Shown: positions 5,082 to 43,715 of the stretch, one piece after another
Layout: each line of letters opens with the position of its first letter
Numbering within the stretch: the stretch's first letter is position 1
NCBI GenBank assembly: GCA_964364225.1
Contig: CAYIKP010000005.1
Coordinates: forward strand, 1-46,985
Direction: 5' to 3'
Origin: an uncultured Candidatus Saccharibacteria bacterium
GTDB lineage: Bacteria > Patescibacteriota > Minisyncoccia > Phycocordibacterales > Zambryskibacteraceae
Length of the DNA stretch: 46,985 nucleotides
Position numbers and translations under genes: made by a program
Notes under the pieces: generated by a model
Databases searched by the model: none
What the model saw: the letters and a program-made list of their open reading frames with translations, nothing else
What the model was told of the DNA's origin: nothing

Positions 5082-5150
5082 GGCCAAAGTATTTCATTGA
5101 TGAGCGAGCGACGAAAGGTCACCAATGCTCCTCAATGAAATACTTTGGCC
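5082..5150. repeat. Long hairpin with the conserved 27-nt core (copy 2)
   Basis: Perfect 19-bp arms ggccaaagtatttcattga / tcaatgaaatactttggcc around agcgagcgacgaaaggtcaccaatgct. Confidence 0.85.
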
Positions 5151-5222: not shown

Positions 5223-5933
5223 ATGACAGGAACTAATACAAAAACAGTAGACATTGATCACCTTTCAAAAGCGGGGGTGCATTTTGGCCGTTCTCGCTCC
5301 AAGAGGCACCCTTCTTCGAAGGATTTTATTTTTGGCCATAAGGGAAGTGTAGAGATTTTTGATTTGGAAACCACTAAAACTCTTTTAGAAAGAGCTATGC
5401 AGATTGCTCACGAGATAGGGGAAAAAGGGGGACAGATTCTTGTGGTGGGAGGAAAGTCAGAAGCAAAAGGCGCAGTAAAGGACACAGCTTCTTCGGCGGG
5501 ACTTCCATATGTTGCGGGAAGATTTATTGGGGGCACCCTTACAAATTTTGTAGAAATAAAGAAGAGAATTAACCGTTTAGAGAGTTTGTCTGAACAAAAA
5601 GAAAAAGGTGAACTTGCTAAATATACAAAAAAGGAACGCCTTTTAATTGACAGAGAAATTGATTCTTTAAGAGAAATGTTTGGAGGTATTTCTTCAATGA
5701 AATCTTTACCAAACCTAGTTTTTGTAGTAGATCCTAGAAAAGAGAATATTGCTGTACGCGAGGCAAATAATTTAGGAATTCCTGTAATGGCCCTAGCTTC
5801 CTCTGATTGTAATATGAAGGAACTTGCGTATCCCATTCCGGGCAACGATGCGACTGATGCAAGTATTAGGTTTATAACAGACAAGATAACCAATGCTTAC
5901 AAAGAAGGTAGAAAGGTAACAGTAAAGGCATAA
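5223..5933 (+). CDS. rpsB: 30S ribosomal protein S2
   Basis: AGVHFGR, RFIGGTLTNF, IPGNDA; start moved to ATG 5223, downstream of a TTGCGG...TACTAT promoter. Confidence 0.95.
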   Translation: MTGTNTKTVDIDHLSKAGVHFGRSRSKRHPSSKDFIFGHKGSVEIFDLETTKTLLERAMQIAHEIGEKGGQILVVGGKSEAKGAVKDTASSAGLPYVAGRFIGGTLTNFVEIKKRINRLESLSEQKEKGELAKYTKKERLLIDREIDSLREMFGGISSMKSLPNLVFVVDPRKENIAVREANNLGIPVMALASSDCNMKELAYPIPGNDATDASIRFITDKITNAYKEGRKVTVKA

Positions 5934-7400: not shown

Positions 7401-7532
7401 ATGGATCCCGTTAGAAACCGCGGTCGCAGTTTAGTAGGTAAGCTAGCAGATAGCTTAGAATTTTATGTATAAAACACAACAAAACGACATTATAAAAAGT
7501 GAAAGACCGCGACCTGTTTCTAACGGGATGGA
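7401..7532 (+). mobile_element. Start-codon-inserted hairpin element E1 (127 nt, ATGGA direct repeats)
   Basis: ATGGA-TCCCGTTAGAAACCGCGGTC ... GACCGCG-ACCT-GTTTCTAACGGG-ATGGA; terminal inverted repeats; 23-codon uORF from the first ATG. Confidence 0.75.
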
Positions 7533-21551: not shown

Positions 21552-22469
21552 ATGGCAAACAGACACCTCTCGAGATCAATAGTCCTACAATCACTCTTTG
21601 AATGGGATTTTTTTGATACTAAAACAGCAAAAATTAAAGAAGTGGTTGAAAGAAATGCTGTGGAATTTGCTCCCGGTATGAAGGATCTTTCCTTTGCAGA
21701 ATTTTTAGCGACAGAGGTTGTAAAAAAGAAGACCGATTTAGATACAATAATAGAAAAGGCGGCCCCCGATTGGCCAATAGATAAAATAAACGGAGTAGAC
21801 AGGAATGTTTTGCGTATTGGGTTGTGTGAGCTCTTGTTTTCAGACAGAGAAGAAGTGCCACCAAAAGTTGCAATAAATGAAGCAATAGAATTGGCAAAAA
21901 CATTTGGAGGAGAGACCTCTGGCAAGTTTGTAAATGGTGTACTGGGCGCAGTTTATAAAGAGCTAGGAGAACCGGGAAAAGATCAGCAATCTACAAAAGG
22001 TATAAAAGGAAAGAAAAATAGTTTGGATGATGAGCACATACCACTTGAAGAGTTGGGTGGAGCTGTTGTGTACGCCATAGATGGAGAAAAAATATATGTT
22101 GCTCTTGTTCATGATGTTTTTGGACACTGGACCCTTTCAAAAGGAAAATTAAATGTTGGAGAGGATGTTAAAGAAGGGACAAAAAGAGAGATAAAAGAGG
22201 AGATAAATTTAGATATTGAGATAGAGGACGATTTAGGAAAAAATGAATATATTGCTTATCATCCAGAAAAAGGAAAGCTTAGAAAAAGAGTTCATTATTT
22301 TCTAGCAAAGGCTAATTTTGAACCCCTAAAACTTGAATCAAGTGGAGGATTGGACGATGCAAGATGGTTTACGGTAGTCGACATTGTCGATCTTAATTTT
22401 TATGATGATGTATTACCACTTATGACTAAGGCAGTGACCATTCTTGCAGAAAGACATAATAAAAAGTAG
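21552..22469 (+). CDS. nusB: NusB fused to a C-terminal NUDIX hydrolase domain
   Basis: RHLSRSIVLQSLFEWDF, DRNVLRIG, VAINEAIELAKTFG..KFVNGVLG; then WTLSKGKL...GTKREIKEEINL. Confidence 0.9.
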   Translation: MANRHLSRSIVLQSLFEWDFFDTKTAKIKEVVERNAVEFAPGMKDLSFAEFLATEVVKKKTDLDTIIEKAAPDWPIDKINGVDRNVLRIGLCELLFSDREEVPPKVAINEAIELAKTFGGETSGKFVNGVLGAVYKELGEPGKDQQSTKGIKGKKNSLDDEHIPLEELGGAVVYAIDGEKIYVALVHDVFGHWTLSKGKLNVGEDVKEGTKREIKEEINLDIEIEDDLGKNEYIAYHPEKGKLRKRVHYFLAKANFEPLKLESSGGLDDARWFTVVDIVDLNFYDDVLPLMTKAVTILAERHNKK

Positions 22470-22482
22470 TATTTTGCCCAAC

Positions 22483-23178
22483 ATGGCGGACATAAATTAC
22501 AGTCAGTTAGAAAATAGCATTGGGATAACGTTTAAAGATATTAATCTTTTAAAACAGGCCCTAACCCATCGCTCGTATCTAAATGAAAACAAAGACATTT
22601 CTTGGGGCCACAACGAGAGGTTAGAATTTTTAGGAGACGCTGTTTTGGAACTCATTATCACCGACTACCTTTTTAAAACTTATCCTGATTATGATGAGGG
22701 TAAAATGACGACGCTTCGCGCAGCACTAGTTAGGGCAGATACTCTGTCAGATATTGCGATTGACATGCAATTAGGAGATTACCTTTTGCTTTCTAGAGGC
22801 GAAGCGAAAGATTTGGGTAGAGCTAGGCAGTATATTTTGGCAAATACAACAGAATCTGTTTTGGGAGCGATTTATTTAGACCAAGGATATGAATCTGCAG
22901 AAAAGACAGTTCACAAATATTTAGTGCCCAAAATTGAAATAATAATGCGTGAAGGTTTGGCGGTAGATCCTAAAAGTAAATTTCAGACTCTCGCACAAGA
23001 GCATTTTGGTATTACTCCATCATATAGAACCATGAAAGAATCAGGACCAGACCACGATAAACATTTTACTGTGGGTGTTTATTTGAAAGACGAACTTATT
23101 GCTAGCGGAGAGGGGGATTCAAAACAAATCGCAGAACAGAATGCAGCGAAGTCGGCTCTTATAGAAAAGGGTTTTTAA
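22483..23178 (+). CDS. rnc: Ribonuclease III
   Basis: ALTHRSY, NERLEFLGDAVL, dsRBD (GPDHDKHF...GEGDSKQIAEQNAA). Confidence 0.96.
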   Translation: MADINYSQLENSIGITFKDINLLKQALTHRSYLNENKDISWGHNERLEFLGDAVLELIITDYLFKTYPDYDEGKMTTLRAALVRADTLSDIAIDMQLGDYLLLSRGEAKDLGRARQYILANTTESVLGAIYLDQGYESAEKTVHKYLVPKIEIIMREGLAVDPKSKFQTLAQEHFGITPSYRTMKESGPDHDKHFTVGVYLKDELIASGEGDSKQIAEQNAAKSALIEKGF

Positions 23179-23182
23179 AAAG

Positions 23183-23334
23183 CGCTCGCTAATAGTTTCG
23201 GCGAACGTGCATAAAACCCCCAGCGGGGGTTTTTGCTATGCTCATCTCGCCAGAGTCAAAAGCTTCGCAGATTGACTCACCATGCTGGCTCGATTCCGCA
23301 ATGTTCGGCGAAACCATTAGCTCGCTTTTAAGTT
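23183..23334. repeat. Post-stop rod hairpin of the CGCTC...CTCGCT family (after rnc)
   Basis: cgctc + gctaatagtttcggcgaacgtgc / gcaatgttcggcgaaaccattagc + tcgcttttaagtt. Confidence 0.7.
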
Positions 23335-23399
23335 TAATTTTGGGAGACTGGTAGTCCGCCCTAAAGCCACAAAGGCGACATGTTATAATTTTTGAAATT

Positions 23400-23539
23400 A
23401 TGTATCCTGTAGTAGAAAATGGCATCCGAGCAATTGTGGGATAATAAACAATATGATTGGTCGAAAGTTAATAAAACTAACAATAAATATTGGTAATTTG
23501 CTCGAGTAGAGCAATGCCATTTTTCACTATCGGGATGTA
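23400..23539 (+). mobile_element. Start-codon-inserted hairpin element E2 (135 nt, ATGTA direct repeats)
   Basis: ATGTA-TCCTGTAGTAGAAAATGGCATCCGAGC ... GCTCGAGTAGAGCAATGCCATTTTTCACTATCGGG-ATGTA; homologous to 43130-43271 on the minus strand. Confidence 0.8.
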
Positions 23540-25763
23540 TTTAAAGTCTATAGAAATAGCCGGTTTTAAATCTTTTGCAAAAAAGTCAGAATTTGAATTT
23601 AATTCTCCAATTTCAGCAATTGTTGGGCCAAATGGTTCTGGAAAATCTAATGTTGCGGAGGCATTTAGGTTTGTTTTGGGAGAACAGTCTATGAAATCTA
23701 TGAGGGGGAAACGGGGAGAGGATCTTATTTTCAACGGATCAGGCGATACGCCAAAAGCCAATCGTGCTTCCGTGAAGCTAGCTTTTGATAATTCTAGAAA
23801 GGTTTTTCCTACGATTGATTTTGGTGAGGTTATTTTGGAAAGAGTGGTTTTTCGAGACGGCACAAATGAATATAGTGTAAACGGTAGCAAGGTTCGTTTG
23901 AGAGACATTTTTGAACTTCTATCCACTGCGCATATTGGGGCATCGGGGCACCACATTATTTCTCAAGGTGAAGCGGATAGAATACTTTCTTCCAATTCAA
24001 AAGAAAGAAAAGACATGATTGAGGATGCGCTAGGTCTTAAGGCTTATCAATATAAAAAAGAGGAGTCTGAAAGAAAATTGGAAAAAACGCGTGAAAATAT
24101 GAGAGAGGTAGAGAGTTTAAGGCGAGAAATTGCTCCTCATCTAAAATTCTTGATAAAGCAAATGGAAAAAGTGGCCCGTGTTGAAGAAATACGAAGCTCT
24201 CTTTCCCAAGTAGCTTCAACTTTTTTTGCATCGGAAGAAGCATTTATAAAAAAAGAAAAAATACGTTTGGAAGGTGAACTAAAGCCATTGAAAATTGAAT
24301 TTGATCAAATTGAAAAAGGGCTTAAAGAAGCTCGTCAAAAACTTTCTGAAAAATCGAAAGCTCATGAACTCACAGATAAATTACACGAGATAGAAAAAGA
24401 GCGAGAAAAAATAAGAGAAGAGGTAAATGACATGGTGCGAGAAATAGGGAGATTGGAGGGCGAACTTTCGGCCATGAAAAGAATTTCTCAGGTAAAAACG
24501 GGGGAGGCGATTCCTGTTTCAAAAGCCGGACAATTTTTAGAAAAACTCCACCAACTTATTTTTGAGCTTAAGAATTTTGCTCAAACAGGCAATATAGAGG
24601 GCATTTCTTCTAAAGCACAAGAAATTGAAGATGAAATAAATAGGTTTAAAGAAGAATATAAAACAGAAGAAAAAAAAGATGAGATTGACCTTAAAGATCT
24701 TTTATCAAAAAAAGAAAATTTAGGAGACAAGTTTTTAAAACTCAAACATTCCGAAGAAAATGTTTCTAAATCCTACAATGATGTTTTGAAAGCTATAGAT
24801 ATAGAAAAAGACAGCGATAGGGTTGCTGAAAGAGAAACTTATGAGCTTCTATCTAAAAAGAAAGATATACAGGCGAAAATTTTCCAAATTTCTAGTTCAG
24901 AAAGAATGCTCTCAGTAAGAGAAGATGAAATGAGGACAAACATGAGAGAAGTGGGAGCACTTGTTGGAGTAGCTTTACTGGAGGAGCTTTCTAAGAAAAA
25001 CGAGACCCAGTTAACAGCTGAGGGAATAGAAGGTGGTAAAAAAGAAATAGAGAGGATGAAGATTCGTCTAGAAGAATCTGGTGCGGGCGGTGTGGAGGAT
25101 ATACAAAAAGAATTCCGAGATGTTTCAGAGAGAGATACTTTTCTTGAAAAAGAATTGCTGGATTTAAATACTTCCGCTCTATCATTAGAAAATTTGATTA
25201 AAGATCTTTCAGAAAAACTAGAAACTGATTTTGAAATTGGTTTGAAAAAAATAAATACAGCTTTTGAAGAATTTTTTGGAATTTTGTTTGGGGGCGGAAG
25301 GGCATCTTTGCAATTAAAAACAATTAAAAAAAGAGTAACTAAGCTCGTAGACACCGAAGGTGTCGAAGATCCCGACGAGCAGGACGAAGAGGAAGACGAA
25401 CAGGAAGAGTCAGGCATTGATGTTGTAGTTTCATTACCACGCAAGAAAATTTCTGGATTAATGATGCTTAGTGGAGGAGAAAGAGCACTAACTTCAATTG
25501 CTTTAATTTTTGCAATGTCTCAAGTAAATCCTCCGCCATTTATTATTCTAGATGAAACAGATGCAGCCCTAGACGAAGCAAACTCTAAGAGATATGGAGA
25601 TATTGTGGAAAATTTAGCTCAAAAATCTCAACTCATTGTGATTACTCACAACAGAGAGACGATGTCTCGTGCAGGAGTTATTTATGGAGTAACAATGGGG
25701 GGATCAGGGGTTTCAAAAGTGCTTTCAATAGCATTTGCAGACGCAGAAGTAATAGCTAAATAA
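23535..25763 (+). CDS. smc: SMC-family ATPase, shortened (742 aa)
   Basis: MYLKSIEIAGFKSF, GPNGSGKSN, IISQG, LSGGERALT, ILDETDAALD, ITHN; rnc-smc synteny. Confidence 0.88.
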   Translation: MYLKSIEIAGFKSFAKKSEFEFNSPISAIVGPNGSGKSNVAEAFRFVLGEQSMKSMRGKRGEDLIFNGSGDTPKANRASVKLAFDNSRKVFPTIDFGEVILERVVFRDGTNEYSVNGSKVRLRDIFELLSTAHIGASGHHIISQGEADRILSSNSKERKDMIEDALGLKAYQYKKEESERKLEKTRENMREVESLRREIAPHLKFLIKQMEKVARVEEIRSSLSQVASTFFASEEAFIKKEKIRLEGELKPLKIEFDQIEKGLKEARQKLSEKSKAHELTDKLHEIEKEREKIREEVNDMVREIGRLEGELSAMKRISQVKTGEAIPVSKAGQFLEKLHQLIFELKNFAQTGNIEGISSKAQEIEDEINRFKEEYKTEEKKDEIDLKDLLSKKENLGDKFLKLKHSEENVSKSYNDVLKAIDIEKDSDRVAERETYELLSKKKDIQAKIFQISSSERMLSVREDEMRTNMREVGALVGVALLEELSKKNETQLTAEGIEGGKKEIERMKIRLEESGAGGVEDIQKEFRDVSERDTFLEKELLDLNTSALSLENLIKDLSEKLETDFEIGLKKINTAFEEFFGILFGGGRASLQLKTIKKRVTKLVDTEGVEDPDEQDEEEDEQEESGIDVVVSLPRKKISGLMMLSGGERALTSIALIFAMSQVNPPPFIILDETDAALDEANSKRYGDIVENLAQKSQLIVITHNRETMSRAGVIYGVTMGGSGVSKVLSIAFADAEVIAK

Positions 25764-42369: not shown

Positions 42370-43134
42370 TTATTTGAGCACTGCATCTAGTGCCTTTCTC
42401 AGAATTTCTATTGGTTGTGCACCGTTCACTATGATTTTGTTTGTTCCATATATAACAACTGCATTTTGACTGGAAAGAGAGACGGCTTTCATTGCATTTA
42501 TTTGTGTTTTTGTAAAAGGTTTGTTTGAAACAATAATGCTATATGGGGTGCCAAGGCCACCAGCCGAAATTGCTTCCTGATAATCTCTTTCTACTTTTGC
42601 TTTTGCGTCACCCTTTGTAAGACATGATGTGAATGTATCTTTTGGGAGACCTTCACCTTCTGCTAGTGCTGGAAGTATTGATGTGTCTAAAGTGTCATTT
42701 GATGTGGCGATATTATAAATTTTATTAGTAAACCTCCAAAAACCTTCGTTACCACCAACAATGCCAGCACACTCCATTGCCTCTGATTCGTATCTGGCTT
42801 TTTTATGAAGAGTATCAACAGGGAAATGTCTGTATACCCACGCAAGTTTACCGACAAAATCTTTATCAGTAGTGAGCTCTATCATTGTGTTGTGGAATCT
42901 TTTGCACCAAGGACATTCTGGATCTGAATATTCAATAAGAGTTAAATCTGCATTTTTGGGGCCGATTATATAATCATCAGCTTGCACCTCTTTTATAGTG
43001 AGTTCTTTTTGGGGAGCCGATGGTGTTGTTTCAATAATGGTTTTGCTCGTTGGTACTTTAGATAAATAGATACCACCACCAATAAATACCCCGGCAATAA
43101 TAATTGAGCCCGCCAAAACAAGTGTGTTTTTCAT
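42370..43134 (-). CDS. DsbA-family thiol-disulfide oxidoreductase
   Basis: N-terminal TM, EYSDPECPWCKRFH, YRHFP, GTP, NGAQP; start placed at ATG 43134 after E3. Confidence 0.9.
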   Translation of the reverse strand: MKNTLVLAGSIIIAGVFIGGGIYLSKVPTSKTIIETTPSAPQKELTIKEVQADDYIIGPKNADLTLIEYSDPECPWCKRFHNTMIELTTDKDFVGKLAWVYRHFPVDTLHKKARYESEAMECAGIVGGNEGFWRFTNKIYNIATSNDTLDTSILPALAEGEGLPKDTFTSCLTKGDAKAKVERDYQEAISAGGLGTPYSIIVSNKPFTKTQINAMKAVSLSSQNAVVIYGTNKIIVNGAQPIEILRKALDAVLK

Positions 43135-43271
43135 CCCGATAGTGAAAAATGGTATTGCTCTATTCGAGCAGGTTACCACTATTTATAATTAGTTTTATTA
43201 AATTTCGATCTGTCATCCTATTTTATTAACCCTTAGCTGGCTCGGATACCATTTTCTACTACAGGATTCAT
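43130..43271 (-). mobile_element. Start-codon-inserted hairpin element E3 (137 nt, ATGAA direct repeats)
   Basis: Minus strand ATGAA-TCCTGTAGTAGAAAATGGTATCCGAGC ... GCTCGAATAGAGCAATACCATTTTTCACTATCGGG-ATGAA; homolog of E2 with a compensatory C-G to T-A change. Confidence 0.8.
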
Positions 43272-43280
43272 AGAAAAAGA

Positions 43281-43715
43281 TTATAACAAATTTCTAAAAT
43301 GAAAGCCCCGCGCAATATGCGCGGGGCTGTTGATGGCAGGCTTGGGCTTTGCCTCCTCTATGTCTCCAATCTTTGCCTTTATGGTGATACCAATACAATC
43401 AGCTTCTATCTCGTAGGTAGCGCCGATCTCGAGAGGCATCTTAAGGCTTAGAAAGGATAGTTCACCACGTCCGTTCTCCACTATGTTTTTGTAGAACAAC
43501 TCTCCATCTTTATGGAGTACGTAGTGAACAAAGATACTGTCAGTAATTGGTTTTTCTCCAACGACAGCACATGTTGCTTCCTCAGCCTCTTTGACGTTTA
43601 CAAACGAGAAAGCAAACACTAGCAGGAAAAACAAATTAATACTGAGAGAAATCAAGAGAGCATAGTCCATTTTTCTTGAAGGTTGTACTTCCTTTTCTTG
43701 GATTTCTCCAGACAA
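43281..43715 (-). CDS. Hypothetical membrane-anchored protein
   Basis: AAGGAG SD before TTG, single TM, own promoter; hairpin 43304-43328 near the 3' end. Confidence 0.65.
   Translation of the reverse strand: MSGEIQEKEVQPSRKMDYALLISLSINLFFLLVFAFSFVNVKEAEEATCAVVGEKPITDSIFVHYVLHKDGELFYKNIVENGRGELSFLSLKMPLEIGATYEIEADCIGITIKAKIGDIEEAKPKPAINSPAHIARGFHFRNLL

Follow-up and report, generated by a model that had tools for sequence, protein, structure and literature searches.

Probable fold-back mobile elements that duplicate start codons in Patescibacteria and their candidate GIY-YIG nuclease partners

Abstract

The hairpins E2 and E3, which stand before smc and dsbA in a stretch of 46,985 nucleotides (hereafter the window, meaning the whole stretch of DNA that was analysed), are probably non-autonomous copies of a family of fold-back (hairpin) mobile DNA, known here from ultra-small groundwater Patescibacteria, that duplicates the start codon of the gene it enters, and whose mobilisation in trans by a nuclease we infer. 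An earlier note had read them as homologous structured leaders on unrelated genes; homology and structure were both borne out, whereas the leader frame gave way to mobile insertions with target-site duplications, since within one genus some smc and dsbA orthologues carry a copy and others do not, and since the termini of the copies recur on nuclease-coding elements. A search of the openly accessible literature returned no published description of start-codon-targeting hairpin elements, or of GIY-YIG elements of this kind in Patescibacteria. The elements bear on the annotation of Patescibacteria genomes, in which they pass for 'conserved leaders', simulate upstream ORFs and mislead start-codon calling, E2 setting a trap of this kind with an ATG that lies 21 nt before the smc start and in its frame. 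Moreover, in genomes with few Shine-Dalgarno (SD) sites, dozens of essential genes tolerate a 130-nt hairpin between promoter and AUG, which makes them a natural experiment on leaderless or SD-independent initiation in the face of structure. If a nuclease of ~90 aa does suffice to move such a hairpin, the unit would rank as a very small, autonomous mobile one, and its transposition route as a new one related to the Ssn nucleases.

Genomes and sequence surveys

The window belongs to a genome of 553 kb in 16 contigs (G000; C-numbers denote its contigs). The same-genus comparison set consisted of five other genomes (G001, G002, G003, G004 and G005), in which the orthologues of smc and dsbA were traced and the DNA upstream of them was read, and a wider set comprised 61 related genomes. 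A species-level survey was conducted with an exact 17-mer word on one genome per species. Covariation was assessed in an alignment of 63 copies in gene orientation, the four copies with flipped outer arms, out of 67, being left out.

Homologous elements before smc and dsbA

The interval 23400-23539, singled out in the earlier note, coincides exactly with E2 and its two 5-bp direct repeats. The features of E2, of E3 and of a third element, E1, are the following (nucleotide positions in the window).

23381..23389, + strand: TGTTATAAT extended -10-like box, presumed smc promoter, 10 nt 5' of the first ATG (sequence reading)
23400..23404, + strand: E2 5' direct repeat ATGTA, once the smc start codon and now orphaned (empty-site comparison)
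23400-23444, + strand: mini-ORF 1, opened by the orphan ATG, MYPVVENGIRAIVG* (asterisk, stop)
23405..23534, + strand: E2 body, 130 nt, subfamily-A fold-back element
23405-23427 and 23512-23534, + strand: E2 outer arms
23453-23509, + strand: E2 mini-ORF 2
23498-23514, + strand: E2 local hairpin
23514-23516, + strand: E2 3'-arm ATG in frame with smc
23535..23539, + strand: E2 3' direct repeat ATGTA, the working smc start codon (SMC_N, E 8e-59)
43328-43304, - strand: strong terminator-like hairpin just before the dsbA TGTTATAAT box
43280..43288, - strand: TGTTATAAT box, presumed dsbA promoter, 8 nt 5' of the first ATG
43267..43271, - strand: E3 5' direct repeat ATGAA, the orphaned dsbA start, which opens MNPVVENGIRAS*
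43135..43266, - strand: E3 body, 132 nt, subfamily-A element
43130..43134, - strand: E3 3' direct repeat ATGAA, in use as start codon by a DsbA-like thioredoxin gene
7401..7405, + strand: E1 5' direct repeat ATGGA
7406..7527, + strand: E1 body, 122 nt, subfamily B, with an ACCT bulge in the 3' arm
7528..7532, + strand: E1 3' direct repeat ATGGA, where the downstream ORF begins (MDYRKTPYFKVG..., open for at least 135 aa)

E2 and E3 can be aligned from the TGTTATAAT box to the start codon with a mean column identity of 86% over 206 columns (83% for the bodies alone), and E3 is 93% identical to a copy at C1:60757-60888, 5' of an aldolase gene. The similarities that had been noticed from the letters were found in place: both arms and the blocks TAATAAA, TCGAAA..TTAATAAAACTAA and ATAAATA.TGGTAA are shared, and AAAATGGCAT/ATGCCATTTT in E2 becomes AAAATGGTAT/ATACCATTTT in E3 (i.e. 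GGCAT/ATGCC becomes GGTAT/ATACC), a compensatory change. So was the second subfamily, represented at 7406-7527 by E1 with its ACCT bulge and with arms (CCCGTTAGAAACCGCGGTC / GACCGCGACCTGTTTCTAACGGG) different from those of subfamily A; motif searches in G000 recovered six copies of subfamily B besides E1, seven in all, together with several shorter hairpins with similar ends.

Folded as RNA, E2 reaches -44.1 kcal/mol (z -5.9, none of 200 shuffles as good) and E3 -36.7 kcal/mol (z -3.6, one of 200 shuffles as good). As single-stranded DNA, the sense strand folds better than shuffles in both elements, with -22.5 against -16.7 for the antisense strand of E2 and -15.0 against -10.6 for that of E3. 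The TGTTATAAT boxes of smc and dsbA are absent from the list of a sigma-70 scan because that scan demands a -35 box; from the -10 spacing a putative transcription start can be proposed for smc. The one RNA run listed, stored like all the runs in the form of contigs, has a contig over smc coding sequence only (23698-23750).

The surroundings of E2 hold some peculiarities of their own. In the gap between rnc and smc (23180-23330), where the sequence of G002 differs from that of G000, a terminator-like hairpin, AAAACCCCCAGCGGGGGTTTTT, lies within an outer inverted repeat (GCGCTCGCTAATAGTTTCGGCGAAC / GTTCGGCGAAACCATTAGCTCGC). The RNase III gene next door (22444-23178) was considered as a part of the system and rejected, its adjacency to E2 being treated as a coincidence because the other copies do not lie beside rnc. 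Bacterial SMC proteins usually have ~1100-1200 aa, much more than the 742 aa of the SMC-family ORF at 23535-25763, whose SMC_N match covers residues 2-727; smc-type open frames in the relatives have 736-790 aa.

Filled and empty sites within the genus

The smc site is filled in G000, G001 and G002 and empty in G003, G004 and G005; the dsbA site is filled in G000 (E3) and G001, reading ATGAA/TCCYG...CRGG/ATGAA/AAAC (slashes mark the element boundaries), and empty in G002, G003, G004 and G005, reading TGnTATAAT, 6-9 nt and ATGAAAAAC. Among the five other genomes of the genus the element is thus absent from dsbA in four and from smc in three. The empty sites of both genes consist of an extended -10 box, 6-9 nt and the ATG, and the filled sites exceed the empty ones by the element and a single 5-bp ATGAA or ATGTA, therefore a target-site duplication. 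The closest relative, G002, whose SMC N-terminus is 98% identical, has no E3, and the family search listed no element at its aldolase-gene site; given the near identity of E3 and the copy at C1:60757, the two unfilled sites point to a recent gain, or to a precise loss.

A DNA search of G000 found seven full copies of subfamily A, with bodies of 130-136 nt, and one variant with the same arms and another centre. The direct repeats of these full copies (ATGTAT, ATGAA three times, ATGAAT, ATGAAAT, ATGGAAT and, once, ATAAAAT) vary from site to site, yet are identical on both sides of each copy. In 30 of 34 copies from eight genomes, a long ORF takes its start codon from the second repeat. In the wider set, 52 of 67 copies are flanked by a repeat of at least 4 nt beginning with ATG, and 59 of 67 precede an ORF of 60 codons or more, within the limits set by the flanks. 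Insertion takes place right after the fifth base of the gene (sometimes the sixth), ATGNA being duplicated. The host genes (smc, dsbA, lepA, ssb, rplI, pgk and others) are functionally unrelated, and they share the E2/E3 sequence because of transposition and not of membership in a common regulon.

The same repeats could be taken to indicate that the elements are not transposon-like at all and spread between gene starts by recombination or gene conversion through ATG-proximal microhomology, the more so as the repeats are short and, in our count, always include ATG, and as the pgk start codon carries different element lineages in G000 and G001. Five bases of one-sided homology are, however, very little for recombination, the repeats differ by site and match the second codon of the host itself, and some elements of G000 lie at non-ATG sites, with the repeats ATAAAAT, ATTACAT and TATAC, so that we consider this explanation extremely improbable.

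Matches to the family were found in nine of the 61 related genomes, with counts of 14, 2, 0, 0 and 2 for the genomes within the genus. The 17-mer survey detected at least 118 loci; among the matches listed, 37 have both arms within 220 nt, and the other 81 are mostly chance 17-mer matches in unrelated bacteria, or shorter hairpin variants. The metagenome-assembled genomes (MAGs) with listed two-arm loci are labelled Paceibacterota, Nomurabacteria, Zambryskibacteria, Wolfebacteria, Patescibacteria group and 'Saccharibacteria'. The ATGNA/.../ATGNA layout recurs in listed two-arm loci of these other MAGs, and at four listed loci (L108, L139, L145 and L162) two elements stand in tandem, separated by one repeat.

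Start codons as the target

The motif ATGNA occurs at 5317 sites in G000, of which 234 are gene starts, 601 are otherwise non-coding and 4482 lie within ORFs. Elements stand at start codons in 15 of 20 cases, against an expected share of 0.28 (p 1.7e-5), an enrichment that is approximate because the gene set was crudely called and whose expected 28% assumes all non-coding ATGNA sites to be equally tolerated. Seven of the 15 belong to subfamily A, six to subfamily B and two are nuclease-coding; the other five lie elsewhere.

Among 437 ORFs of G000, 76 have a -10 box 6-9 nt 5' of the ATG, the distance at which such boxes peak, and 40 have an SD-like motif. At the 67 element sites a strict -10 box at leaderless distance was found 20 times, an approximately twofold excess over the 76 of 437 ORFs (p 0.02), and an SD-like motif once. 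Because only 20 of 67 sites have the strict leaderless -10 box, the target is the start codon and not leaderless promoters as such. Judged from spacing only, transcription would proceed from the orphan ATG in host genes that are often, not always, leaderless: the transcript would begin at the orphan AUG and carry the ~130-nt hairpin, and ribosomes would start the host gene on the duplicated AUG, where the stem has its foot.

Two of the five exceptions are CCCC...GGGG hairpins of 66-89 nt from the same superfamily, situated inside the TATAAT box of leaderless-looking genes (C3:30596-30684 and C2:22686-22751); in these, TATA(A) is duplicated.

Conserved structure and the leader hypothesis

The alignment of 63 copies yielded, with RNAalifold, an outer helix of 17 pairs in which 98.7% of cells are paired and five pairs and 34 cells are changed on both sides, a score reached by none of 500 shuffles, controls which nevertheless overstate the number of independent events because the copies are related and their cells not independent; slid controls were 33-49% paired. 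The pair that changes between E2 and E3 is CG in 57 copies, UA in four and UG in two, and is broken in none, and the pair next to it is GC in 44, AU in 18 and GU in one. Nine pairs are invariant, in part because the search word prescribed the 5' arm. The outermost four bases also covary (CCCG/CGGG, CCGG/CCGG, AGGG/CCCT and GGAG/CTCC among the matches listed in the species survey), and whole subfamilies have different arm sequences, each of them complementary. The TAGAGCA bulge described in the earlier note is indeed retained, and is not so much a bulge as the loop and 3' half of a covarying local hairpin, GCTC-N5-GAGC, 84.9% paired with 24 double-changed cells. An alternative pairing of GCTC with the 5' arm, an extension of the arm, is 69.1% paired with 43 double-changed cells; the two are mutually exclusive, and the alignment is weaker in this region.

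The selection at the RNA or ssDNA level that had been proposed from E2 and E3 is thus supported across the additional copies, in which pairs are kept, by compensated changes in the outer helix in excess of shuffles and slid controls, by covariation of both the local hairpin and the arm extension, and by subfamily arms that differ yet remain complementary. Repair can, without selection, homogenise the arms of a palindrome, an alternative source of covariation.

In 44 of 63 copies, folding favours the sense strand (Wilcoxon p 1.4e-4), and in the outer helix G.U oppositions outnumber A.C by 13 to 6. Relative to the host gene, the interior is oriented identically in all 67 copies; the outer arms take the common orientation in 62 and the flipped one in four, the remaining copy, with common-type arms, being left unassigned by the rule. 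Strand bias, G.U excess and fixed orientation fit equally well a role in the mRNA or a strand-specific mechanism acting on the non-template DNA.

The first of these options corresponds to a dedicated cis-regulatory RNA leader, whose hairpin would control translation or stability (by AUG sequestering, RNase III processing or a relay of mini-ORFs) and for which mobility would be the mode of spread. Besides the uniform orientation, the better sense fold, the G.U excess and the covariation of two pairings that share a strand, such a leader could account for the reading frames inside the element. From its orphan ATG, E2 has a 14-codon ORF that runs through the 5' arm; 8 nt after it, an 18-codon mini-ORF 2 begins, which ends at a TAG in the 3' arm, and 4 nt further on comes the arm ATG, in frame and 21 nt upstream of the smc start. 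The arm ATG of other copies lies 20 nt upstream, the TGA of its frame overlapping the host start (ATGA), and is missing from E3. Mini-ORF 2 is open in 14 of 15 indel-free copies, with ~4.2 breaks expected (p ~0.04, kinship ignored). Such a mini-ORF relay could pass ribosomes along and open the stem. Structured cis-regulatory RNAs are, however, conserved before orthologues, and in four of five same-genus genomes dsbA is empty, as is smc in three of five; the hosts are functionally unrelated; no relay of the E2 type exists in subfamily B; and a conserved peptide from mini-ORF 2 was rejected, substitutions being free of codon-position bias (46, 57 and 50 at positions 1, 2 and 3). Rfam searches of the window at gathering score returned tRNAs only and no family match for the elements, and those of E2, E3 and the nuclease loci at E up to 1 gave chance-level matches only. 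As a strand-specific DNA mechanism explains orientation and strand asymmetry equally well, we regard a dedicated leader as unlikely. For mobile fold-back DNA, on the other hand, the hairpin would be kept by a requirement for folding, possibly together with its tolerance in the mRNA.

Further structural details were recorded. About 10 bp from the foot of the stem, AG faces TC (e.g. 23413-23414 versus 23524-23525), a tandem non-Watson-Crick opposition invariant in the 63 copies, found also in the nuclease-coding units and with its sides swapped in the four flipped copies. The local hairpin of E2 (23498-23514), one strand of which is common to the alternative pairing with the 5' arm, appears terminator-like in a consensus scan when taken with the TGCCATTTTT T-run, the consensus match being weak. 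Finally, the 'joints' of 81-85 nt between arms come from other arm-sharing members of the family.

Nuclease-coding elements with related termini

Units of ~285-330 bp with related termini also stand at start codons, and their sole gene encodes a GIY-YIG nuclease of 86-98 aa. Two of the five small GIY-YIG ORFs of G000 lie inside such hairpin-ended units at start codons:

C15:4160-4489, before a ruvX-like gene: ATGAT/TCCCGATAGTGAAATTTTGGCTT...AAGCCAAAATTCTACTACGGG/ATGAT (start also given as TCCCGATAGTGAAA)
C2:14661-14945, before pgk: ATGAA/TCCCGTATGAAAT...ATTTCATTCGGG/ATGAA

Both proteins match PF01541 (98 aa, gene at C15:4164-4457, E 1.2e-15, in the C15 unit; 86 aa, E 1.4e-16, in the second) and contain no other strong domain; their match to the UPF0213 structures 1ywl and 1zg2 is weak, and NCBIfam gave a sub-threshold match only, to a group I intron endonuclease family. 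At its start, the C15 unit reproduces over 14 nt the reverse complement of the 3' end of E2. No nuclease unit with exact subfamily-A arms was found in our searches, only 12-14 nt being shared per terminus. The nearest homologues of the C15 nuclease, with 78%, 68% and 59% identity, occur in G001, G049 and G019, the genomes with most copies of subfamily A, and the units which contain them start with CCYGTAGT(A/G)(A/G)AA and end with TT(C/T)(A/T)CTAC(R)GG, between ATG-containing repeats. Since small GIY-YIG genes are widespread (38 of 61 relatives, many without A copies), this association holds only for the closest homologues, at a threshold chosen after looking. At pgk, the start codon is occupied by the C2-type unit in G000 (C2:14661-14945) and by a C15-type unit in G001:C21 (L192), which indicates that two lineages hit the same start codon.

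In the nuclease units, a short ORF runs from the orphan ATG to a stop 2-8 nt short of the nuclease ATG, and the TGA of the nuclease frame overlaps the host ATG (ATGA) in the C2 unit of G000 and in five of the nine loci displayed. This overlap, combined with the stop-start layout, suggests a translational coupling of nuclease gene and host gene.

Terminal inverted repeats and a 5-bp duplication are the textbook sign of the staggered cut of a DDE transposase, and the IS1380 family combines ends beginning with CC with duplications of 4-5 bp. The short elements could thus be ordinary MITEs (miniature inverted-repeat transposable elements) moved by a DDE transposase encoded elsewhere (by a phage, a plasmid or a repeat missing from the assembly), the GIY-YIG genes being unrelated passengers with a liking for the same kind of hairpin. 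We consider this quite unlikely: five transposase families (DDE_Tnp_1, rve, Y1_Tnp (PF01797), DDE_3 and Transposase_mut) had no match in the 16-contig assembly of G000; the outermost bases covary rather than being conserved, a pattern more in line with pairing than with the reading of a fixed end sequence; nuclease units have matching ends, the same kind of site and the same repeats; and inverted termini (exact seed of at least 9 nt) bracket 19 of 30 small GIY-YIG loci in the relatives, by a method that misses at least one known case.

Returning to start-codon-duplicating fold-back DNA, we propose that the short copies are probably mobilised in trans by the small GIY-YIG nuclease, which would act on the element folded back as single-stranded DNA. 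We know of no GIY-YIG nuclease that rejoins DNA and, to our knowledge, a nuclease-only route to a 5-bp duplication is without precedent. A more complete scheme, which we advance tentatively and hold to be possible rather than probable, is that of a class of selfish elements resident at translation start sites, in which a hairpin-ended and transposase-free unit, with a GIY-YIG nuclease of ~90 aa as its sole gene, would move as folded ssDNA and settle on the first codons of host genes. The host start (often leaderless) and the stop-start relay would serve to translate the nuclease, the ATGA overlap would return the ribosome to the host gene, and E2 and E3 would represent derivatives devoid of the gene, which owe their harmlessness to this same combination of hairpin and mini-ORF relay.

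A derivation of the E2/E3 interior from the nuclease gene was rejected as not significant, as many as 36 of 500 shuffles scoring as high for E2; the TCGAAA..TTTAATAA stretch common to the element interior and the nuclease gene is a curiosity.

Several GIY-YIG loci lie next to RNA genes or RNA-like motifs. In G000 (C7:7494-7733, L189), one gene is contained in CCCCGTGAGATA...TATCTCACGGGG directly 5' of AGGAAAGTCCGAAC, and the same arrangement occurs in another genus (G051, L206); AGGAAAGTCCGAAC resembles a motif of RNase P RNA, a reading not retained as Rfam gave no RNase P match at gathering score. At C9:26883-27116 and C1:25407-25631 of G000, GIY-YIG genes stand beside tRNA genes, part of the tRNA being duplicated on the other side (13 nt, CTAATGGTAGGAC, at C9). 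The loci L217 (G056:C4) and L216 (G025:C3) are hairpin-ended GIY-YIG units whose flanks read like 16S rRNA (GCAAGTCGAACG...AGTGGCAAACTGGG) and a tRNA 3' end, which fits the GIY-YIG insertions published for rRNA genes of the Candidate Phyla Radiation (CPR) (PMC11270868).

Comparison with known systems

Like MITEs in general, the elements are short, non-coding and multi-copy, with terminal inverted repeats and a target duplication relative to the empty site; unlike them, their partners with related ends encode a GIY-YIG nuclease and, as far as the five transposase families go, no transposase. The Correia/NEMIS elements of Neisseria, of ~100-150 bp, are likewise non-coding, have hairpin-forming terminal inverted repeats and a TA duplication, and exist in many gene-adjacent, strain-variable copies co-transcribed into 5' regions. 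The Patescibacteria element resembles them in size, lack of coding capacity, hairpin-folding inverted repeats and gene-adjacent copies, but it duplicates 5-6 bp (ATGNA) that hold the start codon instead of TA, has unrelated end sequences and belongs to another phylum; among the five transposase families sought no partner was found for it, the candidate partners encoding a GIY-YIG nuclease.

Mobility through ssDNA hairpins, strand- and orientation-specific insertion at a short target and gene-less palindromic derivatives characterise IS200/IS605 and REP/RAYT, which rely on a Y1 HUH transposase and produce no target duplication. Hairpin, orientation-fixed insertion and gene-less copies are seen here from sequence, whereas PF01797 has no match in G000 and a target duplication is present. 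The palindromic elements of Rickettsia are similarly palindromic invaders of a reduced genome's genes, which survive their insertion; they are, however, inserted in frame inside coding sequence and translated, while those described here lie before the coding sequence, the start codon being regenerated.

The candidate nuclease partners find their closest counterpart in Ssn, single-domain GIY-YIG nucleases of ~100 aa whose cleavage is specific for single-stranded DNA; ssnA is bracketed by hairpin-forming 28-nt NTS repeats, of which many gene-less copies exist, and its authors call the NTS-ssnA-NTS layout IS-like (PMC11893778). The 98- and 86-aa GIY-YIG proteins found here also have no other strong domain, and their hairpin-ended units and the gene-less copies may be comparable to this layout; as against the 28-nt NTS hairpin, whole fold-back units of ~130 nt are flanked here by target duplications, and the nuclease gene lies inside one large fold-back (PMC11893778). 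The main text of that paper reports no start-codon targeting, the terms 'Patescibacteria' and 'start codon' having no occurrence in it (PMC11893778). In CPR bacteria, non-intron insertions in rRNA genes, mostly at the tops or bases of stem-loops, contain small GIY-YIG genes (PMC11270868). Phylum and small GIY-YIG genes are the same as here; those insertions concern rRNA genes, and hairpin termini, start-codon sites and gene-less derivatives go unmentioned in the covered part of that text (PMC11270868). In sum, the element is MITE-like (of the Correia type) in behaviour and Ssn/NTS-like in its partner, and it lacks the defining features of Correia elements, of REP/IS200 derivatives and of a curated RNA family.

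A second, unrelated hairpin family shares the genome. It has a conserved 25-nt centre, GCGAGCGACRAAAGGTCACCAATGC, and arms that differ between copies yet are complementary, and numbers 14 copies in G000, among them those at 1020-1044 and 5104-5128 of the window, C7:35607-35631 and C9:3666-3690; one copy stands after rnc in G002, where G000 has other sequence.
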